Shown here one piece after another: positions 5,481 through 57,684 of a stretch of DNA of 64,000 nt. Each line of letters begins with the position of its first letter. Position 1 is the stretch's first letter. Source of the DNA: Marsupella aquatica (lineage: Eukaryota; Plantae; Marchantiophyta); contig OZ316892.1 in NCBI GenBank assembly GCA_973895155.1, forward strand, positions 3,537,223 to 3,601,222, given 5' to 3'. A program made the translations under genes and the position numbers. Below the pieces are notes generated by a model. That model ran no database searches. It was not told where the DNA came from and saw nothing but the letters and a program-made list of their open reading frames with translations.

Positions 5481-5565
5481 GAGCTGTACGTAGGGAAGCG
5501 AACTCTTCTGTTAGCGCACATTAATCTGGTAAAAATCATTACCCGGGGTCTTTTTTTCGACTAAG

Positions 5566-31244: not shown

Positions 31245-31589
31245 TGTTAGGTATTTACTCAAGGTCTAGGATTACGACATATTAACCATAGTTAGATTAA
31301 CCGTAGTCGGAGACGTGGTTAGGTTAACTAGGATGCACACTATATGCCAAGCGGTGTTTGCTTGGATAAGTGGAACTTAGGCTCATTGTTATGGGGCCAC
31401 TTGAGAGATGAGGAGAGCTTACACTGTGGAGACTTGGTATAGCCGACGGGCTTAGAGTTCAGTAAAGCTCTCTTTGTGTTCCCATGGACGTAGCCTCAAG
31501 GAGGTGAACCACGTATCTCTTGTGTCGACTACTTGCGCGTTGGATGTGTCATGTGCTTATCGTTACGAGTGTCGTCTATGCTCAACAAT

Positions 31590-31601
31590 TGGTATCAGAG
31601 C
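31590..31601 (+). promoter_or_regulatory. Primer-binding site for initiator tRNA-Met (Copia A)
   Basis: TGGTATCAGAGC two nt after the 5' LTR CA end. Confidence 0.95.
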
Positions 31602-32982
31602 ATGCCTGGGAGGTGACGTGTGTTCGTGATAGGATTTCGTGACGGTTTTTCCAGCGTTGAGTGTCGGTGGATTTCTCGGAGTTCCGTCGCATGGAACTTG
31701 GAGTTTATGGGCTCAACGGATAGATCGGGGCAAGAGCTTTCTAACGGTGTGAAGAAATAGGTGAACGGAGCTCGTGGTGCGGAGAGATCTAAGTTTTTGT
31801 CGTTCTAGATTTTGTGAAGAAAGTCAGCAACATTCGCGTTCGACGGTTTTTTGGAGGAGGGACCAGAGTTTATTTTCTCGACAGTGTGAGCTCTACGGCG
31901 AAGGAGGCATCGCATGCTGTAGCTCTGCTTGTAGATCGAGACGAGCTATTTGTTTTGGTAGCTGATTTGTTACCAAGTGAGTACCGTGTGCGACGGGACG
32001 AGCAAAAGAAGCATTCTGATTTTCTGACCGACTATGGAGTCCTCTTTTGCCTGAGAGGGGTTTCCTGTCGTGGCAATCGACTCGGAGAGAGAAGCGTCAA
32101 GTGTTTTGACTCAACGAAGAGATTGAGGCAAGACAATTGTTTTGAGTCCGGGATTGGCTCTTTGATGCGAAAAGGAAGGCTAAGCGAAATCAATTACCTT
32201 GTTGGACTTGGTGACGGCACCAAGTGCAATTCATCAACATTCATTGTTGACAAGGTACCATTTTTTCTCTTTGAAAAACTGATTCGAAATTGGCTATGGC
32301 AATTGAGAAAAATCTGTCATCTTTACCAATTTTTGTCTCCCTCGTTCTTTCCTCGTTTTGGGTGCTTCTTATATTGATCTTCACCGCCTCGGAGTCTAGT
32401 TTCCAAATCTGAAATCAGATCTTGATTTCGTCAAAACCCGAGTGAGATATGTTGCGTTTGGTGTCAAGGGGTACATTCTGCCGTGTGTATTTTCTGCGAG
32501 CGCGACCAGATTTCGATGACGAAGGGTGGTAGGGGGTTTTGGGGGTTCGAGGACACGTGTTAGCCCCTCGATTGTTCTTGAAAAATTCCCATAGGGCCTG
32601 TACAAGGGTCATAAAATATTCCAAAAAACCAGAGAGCTATTTTTTGTCCGTCCGTCAAAGATTTCGTCCGCCGAAAGGTAACTTGTTGTTCGTCTTCGGC
32701 AAGTTGCTAGCCATCGGAGTTGGCAACGCGGTGCATAAATTGAATTGCATTTCCGACGTCGGGTACTAGTTCACATTTTGGTTATTCCCCGAGGTGGTCA
32801 AAACGGGGGAGAATTCCAAGTTTTACCCACTCGACCAAAAAGTGAATAACTTTTACATCAGAGTTCGGTTTTGATTTTTGGTTTTCAGCATTGGAAAGTT
32901 AGGCTCGTGGATTACATGGCGGTGATAACTTTTGAGTTTTTTGAGAAGTTGAGAAAAACGTCATTTTTTCTTGATTTCTCAC

Positions 32983-35900: not shown

Positions 35901-38900
35901 TCTTCTCACCAGTTGCTAAGTACTCAACAATACGGCTATTGTGTGTGCTTGTTGTAATGTTTGGTCTACTGCTAGATCAGATGGATGTTGTCACAGCTTT
36001 CCTCTATGGCACTATCGTAAGCCGTAAGAACACAAAAGTAACAAAATATGTTTATAAACTCGAAATTCAATCCCTTTAGGAACAGAATTGGAATAGATTG
36101 AATGATATAGTAATTTTGAGAGGTTTAGAGCCTCTTACTCTATATAGCTCAAGTTTTCCTTATAGGAGAATTAAATAAACTAACAAAATACAAGCAAGGG
36201 AAATCTTCTGAGTTATGAATAAAGGTAAGTTTCAATTGAGTGAGATAATTATCAATTTGATATTGCCACTCCTTCAAAAAGGACTATGGTCTTATTGTAT
36301 ACAAACAAAATCTCTCTAAACTCATCTGAACTTTTCTTAAATCCATAACAATACTGATTGAAAGATTTATGCTCACCAAACCCAAAGTAGTTTTCTGATT
36401 ACAGGTACTAAGATATGGATCCACTATTATGCCGTCAACATGGATTGATTATTAGCGATGAGCAATTTCAATCAATCACTAGTGGATATACCAGAGTACA
36501 TGAATGATACTAGCTACTATAAAAATGGAATTTTTGCTTCTCTCAATCCAGCATTGATTCTCAAATTGGCTAGCAAATCTCATCTGAGCAAGTCTAGAAG
36601 TGAATTCGACATGAATCTCAAAAGACTGTGATTGTAATTCAGTCACAGAGGGCATCTACTCAATTCATTCACACAACACATAACATATATTTTACAAGTT
36701 CCATACAAGTCTCTCTTGTTACAATGGAAGGAGGGAACCCATCCAGAATTCTGATATCTGAATAAAATTGTGCCCCCCAGAAATGAGTAAACCATGAGGT
36801 TTTATAGGTAAAGGTTTCTAGTTGAAAAGGCATGACCTTTCAAACCTCAAATATCTAAAAGATAATCCTAGAAAAGATGGAAAAAGTAAAGTGTGGGAAA
36901 TGCAGTGGACGCTTCAGAAAGCGTCAAGGTTTGAGTGAAGGTTCGTCGGTGTTTTATGGTAAAACTAATAAACAGTAATCTTAATCTAATTTTAACTTCT
37001 AAACTAAAAGTCGGAATGAGTTGAAACTTTTCTAGGGTACTCTACTACATAAAATCTCTATGCTGCCAAAGTTTCAGACTTTTCTAAGATCTTTAAGTGC
37101 CTCAAATAAATTGGTAAAAGTGGCAGTGTTATAAAAGTGCGAAAACTGAAAACTTTTCTAAGTGTCGGGAACATAATGGACGCTTCAGAAAGCGTCCAAA
37201 ACTACAAAGGACTTTTGTCGACGCTTCAGAAAGCGTCGACTGAATTTTGAGGTTTTGGTCGCAGCGTTCGTCTTCTGGTCTTCGGGGGACGTTTCGTGGG
37301 CGTTGTAGTGTCGATATCGCCTTTGGGGTAGCGGACGCCTCAGAAAACGTCGCTCCTCATGTGGACACTTCAGAAAGCATCATGGTGTCGGGTGGATCGT
37401 AGAGCGTCAGAGTACAGCTGGTTGGATGGCGGACACTTCAGAAAGCGTCGTCACTTAGCGGTTGTATTTCAAAGCGTCGCTACCTTCACTCTTCCGAGTC
37501 CGTATAGTTACTTCTTCACCAACGGACGCTTCAGAATTTGGTGTCGCGTTTGGAGGCGTCGCGTCTGGCTGGCTAGCGTCACATATGGATGCCTCAGCTG
37601 TATTGGGCTTTCTTTCGCTTTGGACTGGGGACGCTTCCGAAAGCGTCCCTGTAGAACAAATGGACAGACTTGAATTAAGCGTCATATTGGAGAAGACGCT
37701 TTAGAAAGTGTCGTCTTTCACCCAAAAAGGTTTGAAAAATTCCGAATTCGCTCTTATTGACATATTTCAACAAAAGTCCCTTTTCTACAAGCACCTTGGA
37801 AGAGGTAATCTTCATGAGACAGCCGCTAGGTTTTGTGAAGAGAGGACAAGAGGAACTGGTTTGCAGATTGTTGAAATCCTTGTATGGGTTGAAGCAGTCA
37901 CCAAGACAGTGGAACAAGCGGTTTGACGATTGGATTCGGTCACAAGGTTTTCACAGGAGTGTGTTTGACCCTTGTGTATATTTGAAACCGGTAAAAAATA
38001 TTGTCTTTGGGTTCATTGTTTTAGTACTTTATGTGGATGACATACTTATTGCGGCCAAGGATAGGTCTGAGATTGTTAAGCTCAAGGCACTGCTAAGTGC
38101 AGAGTTTAAGATGAAGGACTTAGGGCCAGCTAAGAGGATTTTGGGTATGGAGATCACTAGGGACTTGGAGGCTGGTAAGCTATGGTTGACACAGAGCAGT
38201 TATGCAAGGAAGGTAATTGTCAGGTTCAACATGGGGGATAGTAAGCCAGTAAGTACCCCTTTGGCTGCACACTTCAAATTATCATCAACTTTTTGTCCCA
38301 CAGATGCAACAGAGAAGGGGCTGATGTCAAAGGTTCCTTATGATAAGGCAGTGGGAAGTCTCATGTATTTGATGACTTGCACTAGACCTGATCTTGCCAT
38401 GGCTATGGGCAAGGTAAGCAGGTACATGTCAAATCCAGGGAAGGTACATTGGGAAGCAGTGAAGTGGATTATCAGGTACTTGAAGGGTACCGTGAATCAT
38501 GGTCTTTTATTTTGATGCAAATGCAAATAATGCAAGATCATTGATTGGCTATGTAGATTCTGACTATGGACAAGATCTGGACCGAAGGAGATCAACAATA
38601 GGGTACGTGTTCACACTTGGCGGTGGATGCATAAGTTGGAGGTCTACTTTGCAGAAGTGTATTGCTCAGTCTACTATAGAAGCAGAGTATGTTGCAGCAG
38701 CGGAAGCAACGAAGGAAGCAATTTGGTTGGATAGACTTATCACTAAAATAGGATTGCCACAGGGGAATGTGAAGCTCCATTGTGATAGTCAGAGTGCGCT
38801 CCACCTTGCTGTGAACCAGGTGATGGACAGTAGAGTGAAGCACATAGACGTCAGGTACCATTTTATCAGGCAGGTTGTGTTTGATAATTTGTTTGAGCTA

Positions 38901-39014
38901 GTCAAGATAGACGGTAAACTCAACCCAGCTCACGCATTTACCAAAGTGATTCATTTGGAAAGTTTCTCTAGACATCGTGATGTGTTGCAGGTTTTGCAAT
39001 TGCGTCACAAGTAA
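32983..39014 (+). pseudogene. Copia A gag-pol polyprotein (frameshifts, stops, solo-LTR insertion)
   Basis: gag with CWKCHKIGHVKRDC knuckle; protease WILDCACTFHI; GAG-pre-integrase WHSRLGH...CEHC; integrase HSDVWG/RSDNGGE/NGVAER; RT LYVDDILI; RNase H GYVDSD. Confidence 0.93.
36013..37789. mobile_element. 1.78-kb solo LTR (family X) inserted in the Copia A RT
   Basis: Interrupts AFLYGT|LEEVIFMRQP. TSD GGCAC/AGCAC (36008-36012, 37790-37794). Ends TA(TG-derived)...CTACA. About ten copies of the palindrome GACGCTT-CAGA-AAGCGTC. Confidence 0.8.
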
Positions 39015-39554
39015 GGGTTTTTCTTAACATTCGTTGTAATTACTGATATATGCTCTTCTTCACTCCTAGTAATAGGCTACGGCTTAGTTCTGGTTTGCTC
39101 TAGTTAGAGAGGGGAAACCATGTTGGTTTCCATCCAGAACTTCCCGCTGAGGAATCATATAGGTTAGCAGTATTATCCTCCCCTAGACCAGAGTCAAGGG
39201 GGAGATTGTTAGGTATTTACTCAAGGTCTAGGGTTACGACATATAACCATAGTTAGACTAACCATAGTCGGAGACGTGGTTAGGTTAACTAGGATGCATA
39301 CTATATGCCAAGCGGTGTTTGCTTGGATAAGTGGAACTTAGGCTCATTGTTATGGGGCCACTTGAGAGATGAGGAGAGCTTACACTGTGGAGACTTGGTA
39401 TAGCCGACGGACTTAGAGTTCAGTAAAGCTCTCTTGTGTGTTCCCGTGGACGTAGCCTCAAGGAAGTGAACCACGTATCTCTTGTGTCAACTACTTGCGC
39501 GTTGGATGTGTCATGTGCTTATCGTTACGAGTGTCGTCTATGCTCAACATACTC

Positions 39555-42500
39555 ACCTTGCCCATAACCATGGCAAGATCAGGTCTAGTGCAGGTCATCA
39601 AATACATGAGACTCCCCACTGCCTTGTCATAAGGAACCTTTGACATCAGCCCCTTCTCTGTCTCATCCGTAGGACAGAATGCTGATGACAACTTGAAGTG
39701 TGGAGCCAACGGGGTACTTACTGGCTTGCTATCCCCCATGTTGAACCTTGCAATTACCTTCATCGCATAACTGCTCTGCGTCAACCATAGCTTGCCAGCC
39801 TCCAAGTCCCTAGTGATCTCCATACCCAAAATCCTCTTAGCTGGCCCTAAGTCCTTCATCTTAAACTCTGCACTTAGCAATGCCTTGAGCTTAACAATCT
39901 CAGACATGTCCTTGGCCGCAATAAGCATGTCATCCACATAAAGTACTAAAACAATGAACCCAAAGACAACATTCTTCACCGGTTTAAGATACACACATGG
40001 GTCAAACACACTCCTGTGAAAGCCTTGTGCACGAATCCAATCATCAAACCGCTTATTCCACTGTCTTGGTGACTGCTTCAACCCATACAAGGATCTCAGC
40101 AATCTGTAAACCAAATCCTCTTGCCCTCTCTTCACAAAACCTAGCGGCTGTCTCATGAAGATCACCTCTTCTAAGGTGCCATAGAGGAAGGCTGTGACAA
40201 CATCCATCTGATCTAGGAGCAGATCAAACATTACAACAAGCACACACAATAGCCGTATTGTTGAGTACTTAGCAACTGGTGAGAAGACCTCATTGTAATC
40301 AACATCTTTTTCCTGTGTGAATCCCTTGGCTACCAACCTAGTCTTGTAGACCTTCGATCCACCTCCCGTGGATTGATCCTTCAACTTGTATATCCACTTG
40401 CTCTCCACCACTTGCTGTCCCTCAGACAAGCTCCCAAGTTTTGTTGTCCTTCAGTGACTGCATCTCCGTTTGAATTGCTGCAGTCCACTCCTGCTTCTCC
40501 TCAGAAGCACTTGCCTCATGAAATGAAGAAGGTTCCCCTTCTTCCAAAATCAACGCATCACCCTCATTGTCAGTAATAAAATCCTCCTCTTGCAACTGAG
40601 ATGAATCAACCCACTATCCATACCTTGGTGGAGCGCGTACAGTGCGACCAGATGTTCTTCTAGCCGATGACTCTGGTTGATCTGTGTGTGTTGGTACAAT
40701 CTGTAGCTCAGCAGCATCCACTTGCTGCTCACCAGCATCAACAAACTCCTCTTGTTCCTCTGCCATAGGAACCAACTCCATATTTGGAGCAACTCCTTCT
40801 CTCCGGTCATGGACCTCATGACCAATCTCCCCCTCAACAAGATCCAGGATAGGAGATTTTCCTTTGTCAGTACGGGAGACTTGAGTACTCTCCCCCTCCT
40901 TCAATAATCTGGATTCATTGAAGGAAACATCCCTATTGACAACGAGCTTACAGGCAATAGGATCCCATAGCCTATAGGCTTTCACACCACTCTGGTACCC
41001 AAGAAAAATACATTTCTTGGAGGTAGGCTAGGATCTAACTTGATCCTATTCTGGTTTGGTGTGAGAGCATATGCATCACTTCCAAAACCTACCAAGCCAT
41101 GATAGTCTGCTTGCCACTTATAGCGCATCTCAAACGGCGTTTTGAAATTGATAGCACTAGAAGAAGAAAGATTTACCAAATAAGCTGCGGTATTGACAGC
41201 TTTTGCCCAAAATTCCTATGGTAAACCTGATTGGCTCAACATACTCCGTGATCGCTCCAATAGTGTTCGATTGAGCCTCTCAGCGATACCATTCTGTTGT
41301 GGAGTATAAATTGTGGTGAGATGGCGAGTTATCCCCTGTTCTGAAGAATACTCCCCGCCGTTGTCTGGCCTCAGACTCTTCACCCTTGTATCCAAACACT
41401 TAACCGTGTTTCCAGTCTGATTCTCCACCTGGACCTTCCACTTCTTAAAAGTGGATAAGACATCAGACTTATGCGTCATGAAATAAATCCACACAAATCT
41501 TGAGTAATCGTCAATAAATGATACATAGTACAACTTTCCAGAGTGTGAGGGAGTCGGGGATGGACCCCACACGTCACTATGTATGTACTCAATAACCACC
41601 TTGGAACTGTGTGTTCCAACACCGAAAGCACGACGATGCTGCTTTCCAAGAATGCAATGCTCACAGAACTCTAATTTATAAGATTGTAAATTAGAAATGA
41701 GTCCATTCTTTCGTAAGATAGCCAATCCCTTCTCACTCATGTGGCCTAGACGTGAATGCCACAGATGAGTCATCTCCTCATGAGACTTGGTTACATTGGC
41801 CTCTCCACATACAGTATTGCCCTGTAACACATACAAATTCTTCTGTCTGCTCCCCTTCAAGATCACTGTCTCTCCCGACCTGACTTGAAGTTCACCATCA
41901 ATAACGCTCAATTGATGACCATTTGAATCCAACACACCCAGTGAAATCAGATTCTTACGCATGCCAGGTACATACTTGACTCCGGAAAATGTGCGCATAG
42001 TGCCATCAAACATTTGAATTTTCACAGACCCAATATCCTCAATTTGACATGAGTGATAATTTCTCATCAGAACTAAACCGTTTGAAACAGAGTAAGAACT
42101 GAAAAACTCTCGAATGTAACAAATGTGAAAAGAGCAAGCACAATCAAGAATCCACACATCATCTGCTCTCCTAGATGATGTGCACAGGGCATATCCCTGG
42201 CTTCATAATACATACTCATCATTGAGTAAATCAGCATCTCCATCAGCCCTAGCCACATTTGCCGATGAAGATTCAGCTGCCTTTCCCTTACAGTCTCGCT
42301 TGAAGTGTCCAACCTGGTTGCACTTCCAACATGTCACTTGCCTTCTCTGAGGGGATTTACCTCTGGACTTAGATCTGGATTTAGATCTAAACTAGGTTCT
42401 ACGCTCCCCAATTGGTCGCTGCATACTCCTCCCACGGTTAACAGTAAGGGCAGCACTAGAGGATGAAGGTTGTGACATGATATGCATCTTCTGCTGAAGA

Positions 42501-43246
42501 TCATCACTAAGCAGAGAACTTACCACGTCATTGTATGAAATGGTATCCCTATCATGATGCAACAACACCCATGATAGAGATTGGTAAGATGGAGGCAATG
42601 AACTGAGAAGCTGCAAAGCCTTCGTCTCATCATTCAAAGTCTCCCCACGGTTTTCCAAGTCAAGGACCATGTCGTTGAAAGCATCCACATAGTCTTGCAA
42701 CTTCGTACCGGATTCCTTCATCCTGAAACTCATCAGTTTGTAGGAAGTATAGAGTCAGTTCGACAACTCCTTGCGGTGATACTTGCTTTGCAATTCCGCA
42801 AATAAGGACATGCAGTCCTTATGTGCACCCAACTGCTTGATGATGGGAGGCATGAGATAGAGTGTAACACGTGTACCACACTCCCTACTCCTGCATGCGG
42901 TCCCATTGTCTCTCATCAACATCATCTTCACGAGGGCTCAGCAGTTGGCCCATCCCTGACGCATAGAGCACTCCCTTCACCTGCTTCTCCCAAAGCAAGT
43001 AGTCAGAGCGCCCATCATACTTTGTCACTTCATACTTGGGTCCCCCAAGCTTGAACGTACCCATCTTCTTCTTTGGGACTATCGTGAGCTCCGGTAGAAG
43101 AACTGCTTCCTCCACCACTCGTCGCACCGGTGATGGTACCGGTGTCACGTGCTCTTCCTCTTGCTCCTCTCTCTCCACCACAAACCGCTATGGTGATCCT
43201 CGTGCTTCAAGTTCCACGTCTTCAAAATCTCCTTCGAATCACTCAT
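39555..43246 (-). pseudogene. Copia B gag-PR-INT-RT (5' part)
   Basis: gag with CWKCNQVGHFKRDC; WILDCACSFHI; HSDVWG...DNGGE...NGIAER; LYVDDMLI. Several frameshifts and stops. Confidence 0.92.
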
Positions 43247-43732
43247 ATGAGAAAATCACAAAAAAATAACATTTTTCACAACTTCTCAAAAAACTCAAAA
43301 CTAATCACCGTCGCGTAGCCCACGAGGCTAGGAGTCCAAAATTGAAAACCAAAATCAAAAACAAACTTTGACAAAAAAGTTATACAAATTTTGGTCGCCC
43401 TTGGAGCGAGGCTCCCTTTGGTCACTCCGGGTTGCCCTTGGAGCGAGGCTCCCCCTAGTCACTTCGGGTCGCTCTTGGAGCAAGGCGCCCTCGGGTCGCC
43501 CTTGGAGCGAGGCACCCTCTGGTCACTCCAGGTCTCCCTAGAAACCTTGTTGCTACGAAAATCCTGCCGCAATTCTCGGACAAAGTTACTGTTCACTAAC
43601 TTTGTCTTTTCCTTGTGTCCTAGGTCGCCGCCGCACCTCACCTCTCCGTGGTGCGCTAAGTTTTTGTAGGAAACACAATTTGCCAACATCCAACGTTGCT
43701 TGCTGCCGCCAACATCCAACGTTGCTTGCCGC

Positions 43733-46183
43733 CATACATCTTGGGCAAGCTCCTGCGGTTTCCTCTAGTTTAGAACTTAATTTCCTAGCGATTCTGCCTA
43801 TCTGGAATGCTATCGCAACCGGGTACTCATTTTGATTCCAATGACACCATTCTAAGAGTTTTCTAAGGTCCTCCTTTCTCTTGGGTAGGCGGTACTGCGT
43901 GTAGCCTTGAGGTAATCGATCACTTGGTGGCATGGTCGCTGCTATAAACGCTGCTCCGAACAGAGGATTGCAAATGAATTGCTCGCCTCCTCATGTTCCA
44001 GGTTCCTCCATGCGCTTCTCGAAGTACCAACTCTGTGTGTGTGGACGTGGTGTAAGCAATTATCATAACATCGCCTTCTCGTGCCCTACTTCTCCCGCTG
44101 GCTAGTATCGAGTGCTCTTTCTCGTTCAGTGTTGCTATGATTGCTGCTTCGACATCCTTCTCAAAATAGAACATCGTCTAGAACTCCTTCGGCGAGTTCA
44201 TGTCACCCGTTCGCCTTTCTGGATTTGCGCGTTTCTCTCTTGGTTCGGACTGCTGGTCGTAGCAGTTGCTCCTCTTTCGGAACCCTCAACGAGGCGTTCC
44301 CCAGTATGGTCGCCAAAAATGTTAAACGCCAACTTCGACCTTGCAATTAATGGCCGTTTAACTACCTTCTCCTCAGTAATCTTGTTTAAACGATTAACCG
44401 ACCTTTGAGAGGCGGCACTCCTTCTATCTCGACATAGTCCCCGTAAGTGAATCCGACCAAGTGCTCTTGAATGTCGAGTTCCGTCTTCCACTTCTTAGGC
44501 ACTTCAGCCTCGGCCAACACTAACCCCTCTCTATACACAATCTCAATGAACTCACACCACTCGCGGTAAGTGATCAAGCAAATCGGAATGTTCTCGTATA
44601 GTAACTGACGGGAAATAAGATGGGTGCCGATAGAACAGATCCACAGTTCCAGTGATCTTAAGGTAATCAAGGAGCAAGACTTGTCGTCACTGCTGTCTGC
44701 GTTCATGGTTTTTAGTAGCCGTGACCTGATTAAGTCCGGCTGTCCTTTGAATCAGCCTGCCTGGCAATTGATTTCTGGATTGTGTGGGTGACTATGACAG
44801 GGTTACCCTAAGCAAGTACCCCAGTATCACATTTACCCTTGTATGATGGAGGTGTATGACGCCCAGTGTATCGCCTTCAAAACACACTATCTCCAACTAG
44901 ACACCGCTTCTCACTAGCTGTCTGTTCAACCTATACCTTGAGGCACTGGCCCGTAAGGTTCTGGTTCGCAATGAGACGATATTCATTCATCGTTGCGATT
45001 AACGAGTAACGACTTGCTGCATAAGGCAAATTCCTTCTCTCTCTCTCTCTCTAATTCGACGTTCTCATTCACTACTCAAGTGCGGACTTCACTCTGTTGC
45101 ATTCATTCCAAACTCTCTCTTTATACTCAAAGACTACTCAACTGAGTAGGGACACTATTACAAAATTGCTGGCATTCCTAAGGTGAGCGGAGCCCTACCT
45201 TGCCCCAGACTTCTAGCAAAAAGTGACACCGTGACTAGTACTTCAAAGCCCCTAAATACCTTTACCCCGCGTCTATCTTCGCCCGAGGCCTCTACTACTT
45301 CTTTGGGTGCGCCGATTACAGTTGGGCGACTCGTGCCTCCTCTTTGGTCTCCTCCGCTCATTCACCAAGAACGCTAACTAATGCCTACCAAAACGATGAG
45401 TGGAAGCCAAGAACTGCTGATTACTATGTCAAGAAGTTCTGTCTTCCTGGTTACTGAACTGTGCAACGGCCTCCTCGATTCCCTTCGGTTGCGCCTGATC
45501 CGGAAGCTTCCGGACTCCCAATTGTTAATCTTGCCATATGTGCCTCGACCTCCTGACTTCTGTCATCTTCCTTGGGGTTACTCGGTTTGCCGGCCACGAT
45601 TACTTGTTCGGCGGTGATTAATCGCCACGTAATCCGCTGATCGTGGCTGTTCTCCCATCTTAGCAGCGGATTCCATTTCTTCCGCATGACCTTTCTGCAG
45701 AGTTCCTCGATGGCCTCGCCGGTGGTGAATTGTTGGCGGAACTCTTCGCCCTTCATTCCGAACAATTGTTGCCCAGCCGCATCCCATACACGACAACTTC
45801 TTTCTTTGATCCGAATAGTGAACATGAACATAGGCACTCCTTCGCCTAGCGACTTACACTCATGAGCTAACCGATTCCTGCTAACGGGGGTTCCTATATC
45901 CGCCCCCCCTTGCCTTTTTTGTCGAGCTCTTGTGCCTAAGGCACATACTCTGCCATCTGCTAGTAGGCCATCGCAGCCTTCATAGCAGAACTCAACTCCT
46001 ACACGACCGTTAATCGAGATGATCGTCGCCTCCCCTACTTCCAGCCTTTCTGTCATCTCAACAAAAGGAATAACCGCTGGTCCTTGCTTACTACTTCCTA
46101 AATACTCTTGGTTGACCTCTAGTTGACACTTCTAAACCTAAAAAAAAACTATAATATCGCCGGTGTAATTTTTATCGTTTACA
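43733..46183 (-). repeat. Gypsy 3' LTR (probably truncated at 43733)
   Basis: About 97-98% identical to 55234-57684 (16 differences in ~680 nt counted, all transitions). TATAAAGAGAG at ~45125 on the minus strand. Confidence 0.85.
45451..46056 (-). CDS. LTR-encoded 201-aa protein resembling the RPA1/RPA70 C-terminal OB fold with Zn ribbon
   Basis: ATIISI...FCYEGC-x9-C...HEC...PMFMFTIRIKE...VWDAAGQQLFGMKGEEF...EELCRKVMRKKW...DQRITWRLITAEQV lines up in order with plant RPA1 ATISFI...FCYTAC-x8-C...CDRC...YRYLLQVQIQD...AFQETGEEIMG...EQRVKMTVVKVDKV. Confidence 0.7.
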   Translation of the reverse strand: MTERLEVGEATIISINGRVGVEFCYEGCDGLLADGRVCALGTRARQKRQGGADIGTPVSRNRLAHECKSLGEGVPMFMFTIRIKERSCRVWDAAGQQLFGMKGEEFRQQFTTGEAIEELCRKVMRKKWNPLLRWENSHDQRITWRLITAEQVIVAGKPSNPKEDDRSQEVEAHMARLTIGSPEASGSGATEGNRGGRCTVQ

Positions 46184-46260
46184 TTCTCCTTTGCTTACCT
46201 ACAGATTCGTCCTCGATATCCGTTATGCTTGGTACACGTTGGGGACAAGTCGTCACCGGT

Positions 46261-49200
46261 CTACTTCACTCCCCTACCCTCGCTAACATTGGTCGTCCTG
46301 GTTGGAGTTATCGGAACTCTGCTCTGTGCCTTCAGCTTCCTCACTTCGGATTTTAAATCCAAAATTGATCGTTCCCTATCTTCCAGTTCTTGCAAAAGCT
46401 GATCGTTCTCTGCCCTCAACTGCTTGAGTTCCTTGGTATGTTCAGTGATACTCTCCTCTCCAGTGCCCTGTAGCTTCACAGTGGCTTCTAAGTCAGCAAT
46501 TTTCCGCTTATAGTCGTCTTCTGTGATTCTCCAACTCTCTGATACTTCATAGTGTTTTCGTCTGAGCTTCCCCAATTGCTCCTCCAGTAGGGCTTGTTTG
46601 TTCAGATCCTCCGTGGGGTCCCCTTTGGAATCCTTGACTGCGGTGGTTTGCTGGATTTGGGTTTCCAGACCCTGGAGCTTTTTTCCTTCACCCTCTGGCG
46701 TTCCACTGCCCATTCCCTGGCTGTTCTGCGTTGCTTTGCTGCTTCATCCTTGAGTTGCGATTGCAATTCTTCTATTTCCTTGAGTTTCTCGTTATCCTCC
46801 CTTAGCTGTGAATTGATCTTTTGGCTATCTGCTTTGATTGTGGCTATGGCTGCTCCGATGGCCGTGACAACCTCCTGGTAATTTGTCGTTAGTCCCCCTG
46901 GACGTAACCCTTCTATCCCTAAGTAATCAGCCAATTCCTGCGTGGCTGCCTCCTCATGCCTCCAGCCTCTTCCTATGGTTGTCAGTCGATCCCTATCTGC
47001 TATTAGCTCTTTGTTACGATTTAGTAACTCCTTGATGGTCTCCTCGGCCTCCACTGCCCATTTATCTGCCTCCTCCTTCCCGGCTAAGTCCTCGGCGATT
47101 TCTTCTTCTCGCTTGTTCCACTCCAAGTGTACTAGCACACTTGTTATTCCCTGATAAATGGCTAATTGACTGGCGATTTGTCCGATCATGACTGTAAAGA
47201 TGCTATCTTTTTGCACTGTGCTGATCTTCTCTTTCAATACTTCGATCCCCAGCTTCTCCCGTAATTGTTCTTCATCACCTTCTTTTACAGTTGAGAGGGC
47301 GTACTTGAGGTCGTCGTCATCAATGGGCGCTGTCCTATAAGCCTTGGTTTCTGCTCGCATTTTGTCTTCCTCTGCTGGTTCCTGACCCTTTGATTCTAAC
47401 TCCTTCTTGGTCGGTGTTGGATTGGTTTCTTTCCTCCTGGTGGTGCGCACTGGTGATGCGTCCCCCTCTTGCTCTTTGTTGGTTGCTTCCTCTTCTGGCA
47501 GGGTGCCCTTCTGCTTCTTGGCTCCCTCACTCCTCGTTGGTTGGTAAATGGTAGCTGCTGATTCTATTTTTCCCCCGTCTTCCCCTGTAAGCTGACTCCC
47601 GATTAGCACTTGGAGATGTGACTCGATCTCTACTGGCAGGTTGCTTTTACTGCTGATTAATCGTTTAGCTCGCTTGATGGCTGCATGGAACCCTTCGTGG
47701 AAAAAGGCCGACCAATCCTTTTGCTTCCCGTCTCCCTCCTCTACAATTTTAATCATAAATCAAGGATATTCTGATCTGGGCCTCTTCCAATGTAATGCAT
47801 GGGTTACAAATTCGAGCCTTTCCTTGATTTTCTCATCCGTGCAATGCTTGGTCGGATAGCCCCTGTTGTCGTCTACGTCCTTGTGTGTGGAAATGTGGCA
47901 GGTTGCCAAGTTTTCCCCATCCGTTTCTTGATCTCCGCTCCTTGCTTTGGCAGTTTGAAAAGCTCCTGAAGCTTCCGAGGATTCGTCTTAATGACTTGGC
48001 CCCTACATATTCCCTGATTTTCGGTGGGTTTCCACGTGGTGATGAACTCGCTGTAGTCCTCTGCTTGTAGCTTCGTGGTTTGATTCCACTTTAGTTTCAC
48101 GAATTTCTCCAATCCTTGTGTCTGTAGAAATTTCCTGTGTGCTTGTCCGCGCATAGTTTGCAATATCTGTGGCCCCATTCTCTCAAATTTCAAAACATGA
48201 CTTGTTTCCCCTGGACTCGCCTTTGCGGCGCGCGTCGACTTCCCGGTCCTACTTTTTGCTTCTTCTGCTGGTTCTTCTTCTTCTTCACTGTCGGATTCTT
48301 CCGGTTCTTCCTCCTCGGATTTGACTATTTTGATCTTTCCCCTTACGGATCGCACCTCCCTCATCGTTGGCGGCTCAAGTTTAATCGTTTTGGCTGTCCC
48401 CTTGCGGTTCCTCTTGGTCCTAGAAGGAGTTGTTTCCTCAAATATCGCTGTGGTGACTGCCGTGATCGCTTTCGTGGGATCCGGGTTGGCTAACAATTCT
48501 GCCATGGTCAGCTTCCGCCTCCCTTCTCGTTGAAGTTTGTTGAGTTGGTTTCCCCGTTGTTCTTCTGTCTGCTCGGCCGCTTGCTCCGTTGGTGCCTTGA
48601 TTACTGATTCGGTTTGTGTCTCTAGGGTTGGCTCCTCGGCGGGCCCCTGCCCTTCCCTTTTGGCTGTAGTTTCCGAGAGATGGTCAGCCGCTGAAGGTCC
48701 CTGACTCACGATCTCTTGATCATCTTCGGGGTTGCTCCTTTCCCTTTCCGCTGACTCGGAAACTTCCAGCTCCATGCCCTCTGCTGTTGTCGGCCCTTCT
48801 CCCTCTGTGTGCGTGGGGGCTGGTGTCTCCTCCATCATCGGGGTTTCGAGTAGTTCGTTGATAGTAACGCGCTTCCTCGGTTTATCGTCCTCAAACTCGT
48901 TTGATCGTTTCAGCTTCAAAGTCTTCATGCCCACCGGTAATGTGTAATGCCTATTACCGACCCTCGACCATTCGAATTTCACCTCGCGCTGATAGCCACT
49001 CCACTCGAGGTTCTCTCGTAATCTCCTTGCCAGTCAGAAATAGGGTTTTTGGTTTAACAATTCTTTTGTGGATGATGGTGCTCGCCCTTTGGATTCTAAT
49101 GTATCCTGGACTTCTAGTATAACATGTAATTTTCCCGTGGAGTTCTCAATACAGGGTATCGAGTTGGGTCCTATCAAAATCCGATCTGCAATCCATGTGG

Positions 49201-49759
49201 AAAAGGGTCCGTGTGTACATCCTACGATTACTACTCTATAAGGAAACCTTCTCCTCCTCTCTTCCTGGCCTTTGGGTAATTTGTGCTTCCAATCGTGGAT
49301 CTGAAAGATTTCAGATAGGTCCTCCACCGCTAGAACCACTGACTTGATTTGACCTGATTCCGTTGGTTTGTTTGATGGGATGGTTCCGTTCACGTAATCC
49401 TCTAATGGGTACCCCTTGATCGTTAGTTCTCGTCCTTGTTCATTGGTGCTTTCTTCTCGTCATAGTGTGTCACGTGTGGTGGTCGCGACTAGCTTCTTTG
49501 CATGTGCTAAGGGTCGTTCCTTGTTCTTGGCGGTGAGTGCCCCTCCGGTGGCTTCCATAGATGCTTGATCGGGGGTCACGCCAATACAGGCTACCATTCT
49601 AGTGGGTAGCTCGTACCCTTCTCCATCCGCTTGATTCTCGTTAGGTGGTGCTGTCGGCAGTTGATAGCTGTCGTCGTCCTCGTTGAGCGCCGGTACCGTA
49701 TCGGACTCGTTGCCGACTTCGCTTTCCCCTGGGTAGTCGTTAATCGTATCCTCTACTTC
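46261..49759 (-). pseudogene. Large extra ORF 3' of integrase (Athila-ORF1/Transposase_32-like segment, acidic region and C-terminal coiled coil)
   Basis: In frame with integrase through TGA stops at 49760, ~49460 and 49034. GLEKFVKLKW...SEFITTW...RGQVIKTNPRKLQELFKLP...ERLEF...DWSAFFHEGF, then a long E/K/L heptad-rich region. Two frameshifts. Confidence 0.6.
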
Positions 49760-52700
49760 TCATAAGTACACGTCGTTCCTTACGTGGTACGACTTCATCT
49801 TATTCCCATTCACCCGCCGTTGCTCGCTCCCATCCTGGCTGGTAATTTTGAAGGTTCCGTTTCCCCACGCCTTGAGGACGGTAAAGGATCCTTCCCATTT
49901 AAGTCTCAACTTTCCTTTTTTTATTCGTGCCCGCTTTTGGCACCACAGTACTAATTCCCCTTCCGTGAACGTGGTTACCTCCCGTTGATCGTCTATTCGT
50001 CGCTTGCGTTGTCCTTGTACATACTCTAATCGCTCTTCGGCCCTTCTCCGGGTTTCGGTAACCTCCAATAGTGCTTTTAACCGTCTAGTTAAACACGGGT
50101 TCTGATTTATGTCGTATCCCGCTGCGATTTGCAAACTAGGTAATTCGTAGTCTGTCGGCATACGGGCCTCAACTCCAAACATTAATTGAAAAGGGGTGTG
50201 GCCCGTGGTTACCTTATATGCCGTGCGGAATGCCCATACTGCCGCCGGCAGCTAAACGTCCCAATCGTTTTGCTGTTCGTTAACCACTTTCCGTAAAACA
50301 TTGAGTAAGACTTTGTTTGTTGACTCCGCTTGCCCGTTACACTGAGGGTAATAGGGAGTCGAAAACCGATGGCTTATATGGTAATTATCCGTCAGTTCCT
50401 GGATAACCTTGTTCAGAAAATATGAACCTTGATCGCTCACTAGCTCACCTGGTAATCCGTATCTCATGATGATGTTCTGGTACAAGAACTTGGCTGTTAC
50501 TCGGGCAGTGTTCTCCCGAGTTGCGACTGCTTCCACCCATTTTGTGGTATATTCTGTTGTTGCTAAAATATACTGGTTCTGACTATATCTGGAAGATGGA
50601 GTGATGGGTCCTATGAAATCTAGTCCCCATTTCTGAAAAATATAAGGGGCGATTATAGGCCTGAACTCCATGTTTTCCTTTATAGGTCCTGTACGCTGAC
50701 ACAGGTCGCAAGTTTTTACAAACTCCCGAGTCTCTTTATGGACAGTTGCCCACCAACGTCCTTGCTGAAGAATCTTCCTCAGGGTGATCTCGGTGCCGAA
50801 ATGTCCCCCTCCTAGTCCTTCATGTGTCGTGATTAAGGCTTCTGGCCGTTCTTCCTCCGGAACTACTCTACGTAGTATGTCATCGGGCCCCTGGTAATAA
50901 AGCACGTGGTTGATCAAGGTGTAGGGCCTTGCCTTATAGGCGTAGACCTTCCTTTCCTTACTGGACAACCCCTCGGGGAATACCGCTGTGCATAAATACC
51001 TTTCTAATGCTGGTTCGTCATCCAAGGTCACTAGATTTACAGGATGCCTTTCCTTGGCGTCTTGAAATAGCTCCATATCCGGTAATTGATCGTCTTCTTC
51101 CTTGCCTGTCTCTCCTGATTCGAGTCTACTCAAATAATCGGGTATGACAAGGGTTTTCCCGGGTTTATAAATGATGGTGTAATCAAACTCAGCTAATAAC
51201 AAAATCCATCTTGCAATTCGGCCCGACAGCTGTGGTTTGTTTACTAAGTTGACCAAGGCATTATGATCTACATAGAATATGAATCGATTCCCAAGTAAAT
51301 AATGCCTAAATTTCTTTACTGCAAATATCATGGCTAATGCTTCCCTCTCAGTCGTGGTGTAGTTCCTTTCATGCACGTTTAACAGTATACTGGTAAATCG
51401 ATACCTTGTTCTCCCTTCTGTGCTAACACTGCCCCCACCGCCACCAGAGAAGCATCTGTATGTAGATGGAACTCCCTCTTCCAATTTGGCTCCTTGAGTA
51501 TGGGTGCATGGCACAACCGGTTTTTGATTTCTTCAAACGCGTTCTGACAGTCGTCGTCCCAAGTGAATGTTTGATGGTTACCCGTTAATCGTGCCAACGG
51601 GGCATTGATTTGGGAGTACCCCTTGATGTAACGACGGTAAAAACCTCCACTTCCCAGGAACCTTCTGACTTGGGTTGCACTATTGGGAACTGGCATCTCT
51701 TTAATGATTTTTATCTTATCTGGGTCTACTAACAAGCCCTGTTTACAAACTATGTGTCCTAATATCCTGCCCGATGGTACAAAGAAGGTGCACTTATCAG
51801 GGTTCAGGCTGACTCCCCCTTCCCTACATCTTAAGAGGCATAATCTGAGATGACCTATATGTTGCTCTTCCTCTCCGTATATGGTGAAGTCATCTAGGAA
51901 GATTTGCATAAACTAATTCAAATACTCATGAAATAACATCATCATTAATCACTGGAATGTACTAGGCCCATTGCATAATCCAAAGGGTAATACGAGACAC
52001 TGGAAAGCGCCCCATTCCGTAATGAAAGTGGTCAGCTCCCTTGCTTCTGTTGCTAACCGGACCTGACTGTACCCGCTGTACCCATCTAAAAATGAATAAG
52101 CTGACTTTCCTGCTACCACATCCAGAATTGCTTCTAGAAAGGGTACCGGGAAAGGGTCTTTTATGGTCGCTGCGTTTAATTTTCTGAAATCAATGCAGAC
52201 TCTTAACTTCCCATTTTTCTTAGGTACTACGACTAGCTATCGGGGATAGACACGTATAACGCTTAACAGGTTCAATGAATTTGGCATCAAGGAGTCTTTG
52301 GATTTCTTCTTTTACCTTTTCCACATAGTTGGGGTTCATCCTATATCGTTGTGTCTGCACCGGTACTGATCCTGGTACGAGTCGGATTCGATGTACGCCA
52401 ATTGACTCTGGAACTCCCTTTAACTCCGTGTAATCCCAGGCAAAAACATCTCGGAATTCGGCGAGTAGGGTAACAAGTTCCTCTTTGAGCTCGGGGGAAA
52501 GGTGTTTCCCTATCTTTACTTCTCGTGGTCATTCAGTGTCACTCAAATCAACCTTCTGAATGTGCTCTTCCTCGGTGGCACTCCATCCCACCACTTTCTC
52601 TGCTAGATCCTGCAAGGTGGTCTGTGCTTCTTCCTCCTTTAATGAGCACTCCTGAATGCCTTGCGGGTCTATGTGTTTAAACAGATCGTTTCGTAGATCA

Positions 52701-53890
52701 TGATCCATTTTTTCTTTGGTCATTCCTTGCATCTCGTCGAGCTTGACTATTTCCATATCTGAAATTGGGACTAAGTCTGGACGGCATTTTAAATAGGTCT
52801 CTTCTTCATCCTCATTCAACCCCTCTGCCCAGTTCAAGGTACAGACTCTGGCCATAGGTGGTACACCGTCCTCGATAGCCTTGGTTCTGATCTTGACGGT
52901 CTCTCCTCCGTGTTCTATTTGTATATAATCCTTCTCTTCCCCCCAGTGTTGTTTTACTTTGGCCTGTCTTAGCCAAGGTCGTCCTAACAACATGGGTTGT
53001 CCTCGGGTGGAATCTGCTTCTCTCAAAACTACCACTCCTAAATTGTACTTGATGCCTGAAATCAGCATTGGTAAGTCTGGCACGTAACCCAGTGGGTGAC
53101 AACTGCTTTGATCGGCCATTATTAAATTAAAAGGGGCTGGTAAGAGTTTGACTCTGCCTAGCAGTCTGTAGGTCTGCTCACTCATGAGGTTTACAGCTGA
53201 CCCTCCATCCAGCAATACGTTCTTTAGTTTGATGCCCCTTACGCTGATCTGTACTACGGCTCCTTTGTCGATTAGGGGAATCTTCCCAGCTTGGTACAGT
53301 GGTACTCCGGGTAATGTGGTAGGACTAATTCTGCCTCCCAATCGTTTCATTACTGCTTCATTGCACTGTGGTGCTAACTGGAACAGTTCCTCGACAGTGA
53401 TGTCGACTCTGGTCTTCGCGATGAGTTGCACTAGCTTATCCACTATTCGCTGGTTCGCTTCGGCAAGGTTATTCGGTGGTTCTTCGTCTCGTGGGAGTTG
53501 TCCCGTTTCTTGATCGAATCCCCCCATCGTCACTCCCTCCTCTAGAATTTCCGTATCTGTCTCTGCGTAAGGTTCTGAACGCATTAATCGTTCAGGTCGT
53601 GGCAAGGTCTCGTTCCGCTGTTTGTGGCGAATTTCATCCGCCATTTCTTGGGTGGTTGCATCCATTTGGCTCCAATCGAATCCTCCCTCAGTCTCTGGGG
53701 AATTGGTTTGGGTTGAGTTCTCTGGCTGCCCTTGAGATCTTGTCACCACGTATGTTGACACCTGCACAGTATTCACAGGTGCTGGGACTTTCCCCGCTAT
53801 TTCTTCTTTTTCTTTCATGTGCTTCATCCATAATTCACAATCGGGCCCCTTGATGTGGCCAGTTAGTCGACAATAATAGCAAATCGATGG
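49760..53890 (-). pseudogene. Gypsy pol: knuckle, protease, RT, RNase H, integrase
   Basis: CYYCRLTGHIKGPDC; LLDGGSAVNLM; RVCIDFRKLN/FLDGYSGY/PFGLCN/IFLDDF; HTDAS...TEREALA...YVDH; HEGLGGGHFG...CDLCQ, WGLDF, SDQG, NGQAE; KLRLKWEGSF. No chromodomain or archaeal-type RNase H seen. Confidence 0.93.
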
Positions 53891-54897
53891 GTATTTAGTA
53901 CCACCATCCTTATAGGCCTTCGGTTTGCATTACGATCCGGATTGTAATATCCCTGACTACTCTCCATCCTATCCCCATCTTGTTTGCTTGTTCCTACCTG
54001 ATTTACACCTAGGCTAGGTTTCTTTTTAAAAGGATTCTGGTTGCATTCCTGAGTAGTATGTCCAAGCCTCATATGTATTTCACAGAATTTACGAGTACTA
54101 AGCTCGCCTCGCTCTCGGTTTTCCTTGACTTCTACCTTAGAAGGTTCTGTTTTCCGGTTAACCCTCTCTTCATCCTTACTGCTCTCGTTCTTTTCCTGGT
54201 TAAGCATCTGAGTAATGCCTTCTAGCCGTATTAATCTTTTCTCGTATTCGTCAGCATTAGAAGTGGGATTTTGTTCTCCCACTGTGACTAGACTTCCCTT
54301 CACAGCCTTTCTCATCCAGCTAATTCGTTGCCCATCGGACGGTTTGTTAGTTAATCGCCTCATTGTTACCTTTAACCGTCCAATATAGTTCTGTACTGGT
54401 TCTCCTTTCTTCTGAGTCATGTTTTGCAGAATGCTATACAAATCAGATTCTTCCTTAGCCCTTCTGTAATGATCTAAGAATTCTTTTGAAAACTCAGGCC
54501 AAGTTTTGAAATGGTCAGCTGGGTATTGAGTGTACCATACAAAAGCCTCCTTGTCCAGTGAGCTGGGAAACAGCTCTAATCGAGCTGTGTCATTCTGTTC
54601 GTGGTTAGCTCTAAGCATTTCTTCGAAACGTGCTAAGTGGGTATCGGCATCTTCATCAGGTGCTCCCTTGAACATGGGTATTTTAACCCTTCTGGTAGGA
54701 GCCGATCTCGAACTAATGCCAGCTCCTTGGTGGGTTTTAAGTCGTTCCATGGCTTCTTCCAGGGGTTCTTCGACCTTATCTTGAGCCCTTGAAGTCTCGA
54801 TTCGTTCTTCGACCTCAAGTCTGAGTCTGCTTCCTTGGAAAGGTTCGAACTCCTCTGCCATTTCCCCTTCGTTGGGATTGATGGGCGTCTTGCCCAT
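53863..54897 (-). CDS. Gypsy gag (retrotransposon gag domain)
   Basis: IPMFKG...DADTHLARFE...LFPSSL...AFVWY...TWPEFSKEFL...QKKGEPVQNYIGRL; knuckle FCEIHMRLGHTTQEC. Confidence 0.9.
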   Translation of the reverse strand: MGKTPINPNEGEMAEEFEPFQGSRLRLEVEERIETSRAQDKVEEPLEEAMERLKTHQGAGISSRSAPTRRVKIPMFKGAPDEDADTHLARFEEMLRANHEQNDTARLELFPSSLDKEAFVWYTQYPADHFKTWPEFSKEFLDHYRRAKEESDLYSILQNMTQKKGEPVQNYIGRLKVTMRRLTNKPSDGQRISWMRKAVKGSLVTVGEQNPTSNADEYEKRLIRLEGITQMLNQEKNESSKDEERVNRKTEPSKVEVKENRERGELSTRKFCEIHMRLGHTTQECNQNPFKKKPSLGVNQVGTSKQDGDRMESSQGYYNPDRNANRRPIRMVVLNTHRFAIIVD

Positions 54898-55233: not shown

Positions 55234-57684
55234 CATACATCTTGGGCAAGCTCCTGCGGTTTCCTCTAGTTTAGAACTTAATTTCCTAGCGATTCTGCCT
55301 ATCTGGAATGCTATCGCAACCGGGTACTCATTTCGATTCCAATGACACCATTCTAAGAGTTTTCTAAGGTCCTCCTTTCTCTTGGGTAGGCGGTACTGCG
55401 TGTAGCCTTGAGGTAATCGATCACTTGGTGGCATGGTCGCTGCTGTAAACGCTACTCCGAACAGAGGATTGCAAATGAATTGCTCGCCTCCTCACGTTCC
55501 AGGTTCCTCCATGCGCTTCTCGAAGTACCAACTCTGTGTGTGTGGGCGTGGTGTAAGCAATTATCATAACATCGCCTTCTCATGCCCTACTTCTCCCGTT
55601 GGCTAGTATCGAGTGCTCTTTCTCGTTCAGTGTTGCTATGATTGCTGCTTCGACATCCTTCTCAAAATAGAACATCGTCCAGAACTCCTTCGACGAGTTC
55701 ATGTCACCCGTTCGCCTTTCTGGATTTGCACGTTTCTCTCTTGGTTTGGACTGCTGGTCGTAGCAGTTGCTCCTCTTTCGGAACCCTCAACGAGGCGTTC
55801 CCCAGTATGGTCGCCAAAAATGTTAAACGCCAACTTCGACCTTGCGATTAATGGTCGTTTAACTACCTTCTCCTCAGTAATCTCATTTAAACGATTAACC
55901 GACCTTCGAGAGGCGGCACTCCTTCTATCTCGACATAGTCCCCGTAAGTGAATCCGACCAAGTGCTCTTGAATGTCGAGTTCCGTCTTCCACTTCTTAGG
56001 CACTTCAGCCTCGGCCAACACTAACCCCTCTCTATACACAATCTCAATGAACCCACACCACTCGCGGTAAGTGATCAAGCAAATCGGAATGTTCTCGTAT
56101 AGTAACTAACGGGAAATAAGATGGGTGCCGATAGAACAGATCCACAGTTCCAGTGATCTTAAGGTAATCAAGGAGCAAGACTTGTCGTCACTGCTGTCTG
56201 CGTTCATGGTTTTTAGTAGCCGTGACCTGATTAAGTCCGGCTGTCCTTTGAATCAGCCTGCCTGGCAATTGATTTCCGGATTGTGTGGGTGACTATGACA
56301 GGGTTACCCTAAGCAAGTACCCCAGTATCACGTTTACCCTTGTATGATGGAGGTGTATGACGACCAGTGTATCGCCTTCAAAACACAGTATCTCCAACCA
56401 GACACCGCTTCTCACTAGCTATCTGTTCAACCTATACCTTGAGGCGCTGGCCCGTAAGGTTCTGGTTCGCAATGAGACGATATTCATTCATCGTTGCGAT
56501 TAACGAGTAACGACTTGCTGCATAAGGCAAATTCCTTCTCTCTCTCTCTCTCTCTGATTCGACGTTCTCATTCACTGCTCAAGTGCGGACTTCACTCTGT
56601 TGCATTCATTCCAAACTCTCTCTTTATACTCAAAGACTACTCAACTGAGTAGGGACACTATTACAAAATTGCTGGCATTCCTAAGGTGAGCGGAGCCCTA
56701 TCTTGCCCAGACTTCTAGCAAAAAGTGACACCGTGACTAGTACTTCAAAGCCCCTAAATACCTTTACCCCGCGTCTATCTTCGCCCGAGGCCTCTACTAC
56801 TTCTTTGGGTGCGCCGATTACAGTTGGGCGACTCACGCCTCCTCTTTGGTCTCCTCCGCTCATTCACCAAGAACGCTAACTAATGCCTACCAGAACGATG
56901 AGTGGAAGCCAAGAACTGTTGATTACTATGTCAAGAAGTTCTGTCTTCCTGGTTACTGAACTATGCAACGGCCTCCTCGATTCCCTTCGGTTGCGCCTGA
57001 TCCGGAAGCTTTCGGACTCCCGATTGTTAATCTTGCCATATGTGCCTCGACCTCCTGACTTCTGTCATCTTCCTTGGGGTTGCTCGGTTCGCCGGCCACG
57101 ATTACTTGTTCGGCGGTGATTAATCGCCACGTAATCCGCTGATCGTGGCTGTTCTCCCGTCTTAGCAGCAGATTCCATTTCTTCCGCATGACCTTTCTGC
57201 AGAGTTCCTCGATGGCCTCGCCGGTGGTGAATTGTTGGCGGAACTCTTCGCCCTTCATTCCGAACAATTGTTGCCCAGCCGCATCCCATACACGACAGCT
57301 TCCTTCTTTGATCCGAATAGTGAACATGAACATAGGCACTCCTTCGCCTAGCGACTTACACTCATGAGCTAACCGATTCCTGCTAACGGGGGTTCCTATA
57401 TCCGCCCCCCCTTGCCTTTTCTGTCAAGCTCTTGTGCCTAAGGCACATACTCTGCCATCTGCTAGTAGGCCATCGCAGCCTTCATAGCAGAACTCGACTC
57501 CTACACGACCATTAATTGAGATGATCGTCACCTCCCCTACTTCCAGCCTTTCTGTCATCTCAACAAAATGAATAACCGCTGGTCCTTGCTTACTACTTCC
57601 TAAATACTCTTGGTTGACCTCTAGTTGACACTTCTAAACCTAAAAAAAACTATAATATCGCCGGTGTAATTTTTATCGTTTACA
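55234..57684 (-). repeat. Gypsy 5' LTR (inner boundary uncertain); its RPA-like ORF copy (57558-56953) has a nonsense codon
   Basis: Copy of 43733-46183. GCT CGA CAA reads GCT TGA CAG at ~57425. Confidence 0.85.

Follow-up and report, generated by a model that had tools for sequence, protein, structure and literature searches.

The window analyzed here is a 64,000-nucleotide stretch of the liverwort Marsupella aquatica (contig OZ316892.1, positions 3,537,223 to 3,601,222), taken at its full length. It contains a Ty3/Gypsy retrotransposon on the minus strand whose long terminal repeat (LTR) carries, within its U3 part, an open reading frame (ORF) of 201 amino acids. This U3 ORF is an accessory gene of the element that derives from DNA-binding domain C (DBD-C) of RPA70 (RPA70C), the type with an oligonucleotide-binding (OB) fold, and it is under selection. 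The element comprises the following features.

45451..46056, minus strand: U3 ORF, 201 aa, with a predicted RPA70 DBD-C-like OB fold, a predicted CCHC metal site and a tail resembling a nuclear export signal (NES)
44320..46183, minus strand: inner (3') LTR, 1864 bp, TG...CA (a purine tract precedes the TG at 46183; the CA is at 44320)
55821..57684, minus strand: 5' LTR, from the repeat comparison
56953..57558, minus strand: 5'-LTR copy of the U3 ORF, with a stop at codon 45 (window 57426)
44298..44315, minus strand: 18-mer resembling a primer-binding site (PBS) after the inner LTR
43733..44297, minus strand: second copy of the leader, behind the inner LTR and bounded by a Copia junction
46184..46196, minus strand: polypurine tract (PPT) directly before the inner LTR, from the sequence
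53863..54897, minus strand: gag (Retrotrans_gag and Ty3_capsid, from Pfam)
49760..53929, minus strand: pol in Gypsy order (protease-like motif, reverse transcriptase, RNase H, integrase), broken in the window copy
46261..49459, minus strand: additional 3' ORFs in sense orientation, partly coiled-coil, with no specific Pfam family (translations and Pfam)
44386..44706, minus strand: second LTR ORF, 106 aa, downstream of the TATA-like site, of no family; the 5' copy has a stop

Comparison of the window with itself gave a direct repeat of 2453 columns (43733-46183 versus 55234-57684, 97.9% identical), within which the two LTRs differ at 41 of 1864 positions. Each LTR copy is trailed by an identical PBS-like 18-mer, which we take to be tRNA-Arg-like and which lies at 55816-55799 behind the 5' LTR, and by a leader of about 570 bp. 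Because the 18-mer and the leader follow both copies, the sequence that an earlier note on this DNA called the 3' LTR, while indeed an LTR copy at 44320-46183, is the inner LTR of a tandem. The layout is LTR-internal-LTR-PBS-leader, cut at 43733 by Copia sequence. No target-site duplication was found around the element. [quoted passage not shown] The pol of the window copy is interrupted by stops and frameshifts. The additional ORFs, which occupy 3.2 kb before the PPT (46261-49459) and include long coiled coils, are also broken in this copy. Such a long 3' region with extra ORFs agrees with the OTA elements as described in PMC6317226 (here and below, cited papers are represented by the portions available). 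A non-chromovirus lineage (Athila, Phygy or Tat without aRH) is the candidate placement.

A leader ORF of about 104 aa lies between the PBS and gag (55433-55120, minus strand); the copy behind the inner LTR is truncated at 43733 and gave no Pfam match. At window 43733 the Gypsy leader meets a Copia leader, with a short duplicated motif at the junction. Deletion or recombination is suggested at this point, since the Copia unit stands there without its upstream LTR.

The U3 ORF begins at the first ATG of the LTR, 127 nt inside it, and stops approximately 325 nt upstream of the TATA-like site at 45125 (TATAAA). When the LTR was simulated 2000 times with an order-2 Markov model, 4 runs produced an ATG-initiated ORF of at least 201 aa. 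Between the 5' LTR and the inner LTR, the ORF copies show 15 differences, of which 7 are silent and 8 are not. The earlier note had described an intact 201-aa ORF about 130 nt into the LTR of a Gypsy element, upstream of a TATA-like site near 45125 and with a nonsense codon in the 5'-LTR copy, and each of these points was found as described.

A single-sequence model of the ORF protein was unusable (pLDDT 36); with 60 aligned sequences, AlphaFold2 reached a pLDDT of 83 with 119 residues above 90. The parts of the protein discussed below are as follows.

45601..46056, minus strand: OB-fold core, codons 1-152, pLDDT mostly 85-97
45856..45975, minus strand: predicted metal site C28, C38, H65 and C67 around a basic, Arg-rich loop, from the alignment
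45520..45549, minus strand: class-1a NES pattern V170-x3-M174-x2-L177-x-I179, modelled as a short helix within the low-confidence tail and preceded by acidic residues

The protein is predicted to be an OB fold of RPA70 DBD-C type. In a VIA fold comparison against 48,161 chains, the top three matches were all RPA70 DBD-C (Z 11.8, 11.6 and 11.4): human RPA70C (8rk2_A 458-616; Z 11.8, rmsd 7.3, 140 residues aligned), that of U. maydis (Z 11.6) and a second human RPA70C match (Z 11.4). Tetrahymena Teb1 OB-C (3u50_C) aligned over model residues 1-152 with Z 10.7 (rmsd 2.8, 121 aligned), and after it came yeast RPA, Cdc13, CTC1, archaeal RPA and POT1. Plain SSB and PriB folds scored Z 7.4 or less. 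All six Foldseek matches at E<=0.001 were RPA-containing entries, with E 1.3e-4 for RPA70C, and the viral fold library gave no match at that threshold. The identity of the ORF protein to RPA70C is 10-13%. A PDB sequence search with the ORF returned nothing, and the family profile gave four chance matches among PDB sequences at E 0.13 or worse. Rep_fac-A_C was matched weakly by 3 of 60 aligned family members (best E 0.024) and is the only Pfam family that matched more than one member. The earlier note had claimed a match to RPA70 DBD-C and proposed to check it both with the PF08646 profile and by structure. The structural half of this proposal bore it out, with RPA70 DBD-C as best match and Foldseek in agreement, and the profile half failed, as Pfam (including PF08646) gave 0 families for the ORF at E<=10.

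The metal site also departs from RPA70, whose site is a four-cysteine zinc ribbon. The predicted ligands in the family are CCHC instead; C28, C38, H65 and C67 are intact in 39 of 53 members, and the loop inside the predicted site spans 26 aa with a median net charge of +4. An aromatic residue (W or F) occupies position 91 in 77% of members, presumably at the place where RPA70C stacks on bases. Residues 152-167, which align with the C-terminal trimer helix of RPA70, are coil in the model. Host RPA1 has several OB domains (F, A, B and C) in one chain, which the family has not. The U3 protein descends from RPA1 and is not a member of it.

A phmmer search of the ORF against 1.84 billion cluster representatives (E<=0.001) gave 68 matches. 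Four were dropped as chance, the WD40 proteins P0026, P0029 and P0059 and the SprB protein P0031, leaving 64 true homologues. Species names were obtained for 8 of the 30 clusters looked up, five from Calypogeia fissa and three from Riccia sorocarpa, so that the species-named homologues are liverworts only, which points to a liverwort as the likely host of the window. Two profile searches add more models from Riccia, to which 17 of their 20 and all 14 of their 14 matches belong. The alignment (A1) consists of 59 homologues and the ORF, with four long fusions left out. Its conserved positions are Y25, G27, C28, D34, C38, L40, R45, R60, R62, H65, C67, F79, W91, G95, L98, G100 and W128. In 34 of 43 members the first strand is preceded, at a distance of 7-16 residues, by a methionine, and the domain therefore starts at its own ATG. 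No match came from a word-based protein search with the ORF, no usable match from an Atlas search, and none of 178 pattern matches in a metagenome scan was confirmed.

The profile search for longer proteins gave 14 matches, all of them Riccia models with coiled-coil or RING-like parts and none with an RPA Pfam domain. Neither an RPA1 nor a Helitron protein was among the 7995 candidates scored in that search, which is weak evidence. In the long Riccia gene models (P0021, P0024, P0038, P0093-P0103), a conserved N-terminal domain, a coiled coil and a RING finger are joined to the OB domain. Many of the Riccia sorocarpa models named 'hypothetical' or 'RING-type' are probably mobile-element genes annotated as host genes. 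A layout shared between their upstream parts and the 3' ORFs of the window element was considered and rejected as not significant (best E 0.015 and 3.8).

The LTR occurs at high contig depth in four public DNA runs from two studies. In run X2, a diverged relative is present as an 828-nt contig at a depth of 565, versus 646 for the window's own family. It aligns over 45448-46050 only, with 112 letters differing, and turns unlike the window element three bases past the ORF stop and six bases into the ORF start. Counting the 50 best-supported of these 112 differences, which are those listed, 19 of 26 in codons 1-155 fall at third codon positions (p=4e-5), with 16 codons silent, 7 changed and 0 stops. 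For the tail, the listed differences comprise 12 changed and 3 silent (core versus tail, Fisher p=0.007). All four small indels listed also fall in the tail, as two pairs of near neighbours with net lengths of +3 and 0. Other contigs match only the most conserved motifs, and by eye they stay in frame with similar residues. The intact copy in the window carries private substitutions, differing from the family majority at several places, and is therefore an aged member; the stop of the 5'-LTR copy is absent among the listed majority differences. Taken from these sequence comparisons, the U3 ORF is under purifying selection. The view of the earlier note that this is an accessory gene and not a decaying fragment is supported by the third-position bias, the kept frame and the homologue family.

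The LTR may carry two conserved genes. The 106-aa LTR ORF, whose 5'-LTR counterpart is 56207-55887 (minus strand), is matched by a diverged relative in patches only, and by eye its start and frame are kept. In a diverged contig, common patches lie near the TATA-like site and in this second ORF. It gave no Pfam match and no PDB match under E 0.1, and a complex prediction with the U3 ORF, modelled without an alignment, gave no answer (score 0.00).

The tail of the U3 protein is predicted to hold a conserved CRM1-type NES. The model places a helix at 168-174, and the pattern there follows the class-1a consensus (PMC4168985). From 100 family proteins, 50 with a near-complete core and a tail of at least 20 aa were retained and grouped into 15 clusters at 50% core identity. 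The spacing Phi-x3-Phi-x2-Phi-x-Phi was found in the tails of 8 of the 15 cluster representatives, against 0.9 expected from shuffled tails (P=3e-7), and other spacings tried gave 0-4 of 15 (0-2 of 15 for the other helical ones). Acidic residues flank the pattern, which stands 1-61 residues behind the fold; a tether of such variable length fits a linear motif but would be ill suited to a rigid RPA trimer core. Within codons 169-180 of the diverged relative, six in the spacers or flanks differ, and each of the four Phi positions is either not listed as different, changed silently or still occupied by a hydrophobic residue. Of the seven representatives that lack the pattern, six have tails of at most 30 aa, and a cluster mate of one of these six does bear the motif.

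The U3 lies upstream of the main transcription start, and the U3 ORF therefore needs a spliced or separate transcript. Candidate signals are present at the LTR edge.

46192..46200, minus strand: splice donor AG|GTAAG, with GT at 46198, just upstream of the PPT and the only one in the 14-kb element
46132..46148, minus strand: T-tract with two acceptors, AG ending at 46138 and 46132, from splice-site scoring
46150..46156, minus strand: TATA-like TATTATA, a possible separate promoter of the ORF, from the sequence
45119..45125, minus strand: main TATA-like site (TATAAA at 45125), followed by a GA repeat, from the sequence

Both acceptors tie for first among the 527 YAG sites on the minus strand of the element, and the frame is open from 46131 to the ATG of the ORF, which agrees with the T-rich acceptor and open frame pointed out in the earlier note. 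The length of the T-run in the acceptor tract varies among family copies. Together with either acceptor, the donor would define an intron of 61 or 67 nt that spans the PPT and the LTR edge. An in-frame fusion of an upstream ORF to the U3 ORF through the 46198 donor was rejected, since splicing would place a stop codon at the junction and the spliced RNA would yield no fusion protein. A second promoter within U3 can drive MMTV (mouse mammary tumor virus) sag (PMC9412291).

We hypothesize, with a probability of roughly 0.4, that the predicted OB-fold protein is a shuttle comparable to Rev and CERV that exports the intron-retaining genomic RNA of the element. The protein would be translated from its own ATG, either on a subgenomic mRNA produced by splicing or on a short transcript that starts at the promoter at the U3 edge. 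RNA spliced across the PPT would be without this tract and could act as messenger only, and the full-length RNA would keep the PPT-spanning intron for reverse transcription. Genomic RNA that must keep this intron would need an export route for intron-containing RNA. The OB face and the Arg-rich loop may bind the unspliced element RNA, and the NES may recruit CRM1/XPO1. Such an export job would suit a protein that combines a fold for binding single strands with a basic loop and an NES and whose gene directly follows an acceptor. The more specific proposition, that liverwort Gypsy elements have turned the C-terminal OB fold of RPA70 into a Rev of their own and export the PPT-intron RNA through XPO1, is put forward tentatively.

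Several points weigh against an export role. RPA folds are known as binders of single-stranded DNA (ssDNA) and not of RNA. The LTR location of the ORF is known from the window element alone, and the splice layout may not be conserved, as the diverged relative shows no match to the acceptor region at 80%. Its codon counts, moreover, rest on under half of its differences (50 of 112). The NES pattern is missing from 7 of the 15 cluster representatives, and cytoplasmic retention of the protein could be all that an NES by itself achieves. Matches to the NES consensus are often non-functional (PMC4596688).

The fold and the tail would also suit a cytoplasmic ssDNA chaperone, a somewhat less likely role, in which the NES holds the protein outside the nucleus and lets it coat single-stranded cDNA intermediates within the particle or near it. 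It might then aid strand transfer or hide ssDNA while host RPA at the forks is undisturbed, variants that we consider possible but no firmer. The closest solved folds (RPA70C, Teb1, Cdc13, CTC1 and POT1) are ssDNA binders, the aromatic residue at position 91 falls at the presumed base-stacking site, and the NES pattern fits equally well. A single OB domain, however, presumably binds ssDNA weakly, the Gag nucleocapsid is assumed to do such work normally, and the strong splice motifs around the PPT are left unexplained. The earlier note had inferred an accessory protein that perhaps protects cDNA or engages RPA2/RPA3 and replication forks; the conserved and selected gene is in keeping with the first part of this inference, cDNA protection is a live rival, and the fork role fares poorly (see below).

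It is unlikely that the protein is a counter-silencing or host-modulating factor that takes a bound target, either nucleic acid of the element or a host regulator, out of the nucleus. A binding domain joined to an NES permits this, and additional ORFs of plant Gypsy elements have been linked to host modulation, e.g. the orchid AlkB demethylase (PMC12786077), but nothing in the analysis points to a partner or a silencing pathway.

Also unlikely is an RPA mimic that would stand in for RPA70C beside RPA2/RPA3 of the host and direct repair or integration at replication forks. Although the best fold matches are chains of the RPA trimerisation core, aligned up to human RPA70 residue 616, that alignment needs an rmsd of about 6-7 A, identity to RPA70C is 10-13%, and residues 152-167 are coil. 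The tail helix stands at 1-61 residues from the fold with the NES spacing in 8/15 representatives versus 0-2/15 for the other helical spacings, and the only conserved tail element is NES-like. This speaks against the fork role and the engagement of RPA2/RPA3 suggested in the earlier note, and a nucleo-cytoplasmic job fits an export-type protein better than a job at forks.

A neutral fragment of host RPA1 or of a Helitron RPA, captured and carried in the LTR, is very improbable and largely refuted. In its favour, RPA domains are present in Helitrons of plants (PMC6431247), and of the two copies in the window one is interrupted by a stop while the intact one bears private substitutions. Against it, the frame and third-position bias are kept in a relative with diverged flanks, the 64 homologues fall in distinct 50% clusters, the own ATG and the NES pattern are conserved, and none of the longer homologues has a Helitron domain, although Helitron RPA may be the ancient source.

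Elsewhere in the window, nested related Copia elements with LTRs of about 345 bp occur in both orientations (30144-43700 and 62634-62978), and a degenerate tandem repeat array with 44-85-bp units lies at 12420-12984. By eye, 5533-6315 (plus strand) is presumably an EF-hand calmodulin-like host gene and 7300-9826 (minus strand) a host gene that we take to be an NRT1/PTR-type transporter. ORFs at 24361-28565 and 61441-62270 resemble what we assume to be remnants of CACTA-type and Harbinger-type transposons.

Among known systems, the U3 protein is most alike to RPA70 DBD-C and Teb1 OB-C, with which it shares an OB fold, a metal-binding insertion and a helical subdomain. Unlike these, it is a stand-alone domain of about 150 aa, encoded in an LTR and only 10-16% identical, with predicted CCHC ligands in place of four cysteines, a 26-aa basic loop, an NES-like tail and no adjoining trimer helix. 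CERV of the C. elegans Gypsy element Cer1, HIV Rev and MMTV Rem are made from spliced mRNA and export unspliced genomic RNA (PMC10309623, PMC12786077, PMC9412291). A candidate NES and a region rich in Cys occur in CERV, whose domains are of H, M and G-protein-like type instead of an OB fold (PMC10309623). The function of all three is demonstrated, whereas that of the U3 protein is proposed from sequence and a model, and none of them is described as U3-encoded in the available portions of PMC10309623, PMC12786077 and PMC9412291. None of Rev, Rem and CERV was among the fold or sequence matches of the U3 protein, whose fold points to RPA; any likeness in use would thus probably be convergent and not homologous.

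MMTV sag/naf is likewise an ORF inside U3 (PMC9412291), but of an animal retrovirus and for an unrelated protein, a superantigen. Non-chromovirus Gypsy elements of plants (Athila, Tat, Ogre, Retand and the orchid AlkB elements) are also long and carry conserved extra genes (PMC7264820, PMC6317226, PMC11963269). According to the same sources these lie in the internal region and encode PMD, Transposase_28, Athila ORF-1, env-like or AlkB domains, whereas the window ORF lies inside the LTR and is RPA-derived. The survey in PMC6317226 used a cut-off of 250 codons, below which the 201-codon U3 ORF falls. Its text supplements (17,418 characters) contain no RPA term; the full domain table of extra ORFs may lie elsewhere. 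Plant Helitron RPA genes likewise place an RPA-type domain on a plant mobile element (PMC6431247), but one of another class, and no Rep/helicase is present in the window element or the longer homologues.

In the full-text literature, with subscription papers such as Steinbauerova et al. 2011 outside it, no RPA- or OB-fold gene in an LTR retrotransposon and no Rev-like factor in plants was found, in line with the remark of the earlier note that an LTR-encoded RPA-like gene was undescribed as far as known. A 2025 review states that LTR-retrotransposon RNA export in plants had not been directly studied (PMC12786077). If true, the reading as a Rev-like exporter would give plants their first such system, invented independently of retroviral Rev/Rem and of nematode CERV and thus the third of its kind. 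The family offers a small, foldable candidate factor, a mutable predicted NES and defined putative splice sites, and Marchantia is a transformable liverwort model. Whatever the mechanism, an LTR here carries a domain of the core replication machinery turned into an accessory gene under selection, and a fold is now predicted for a previously unannotated family of at least 64 clusters. Accessory ORFs of Gypsy elements were already known; one that is LTR-encoded, of RPA70C type and with an export-signal pattern is, by the literature covered, new.

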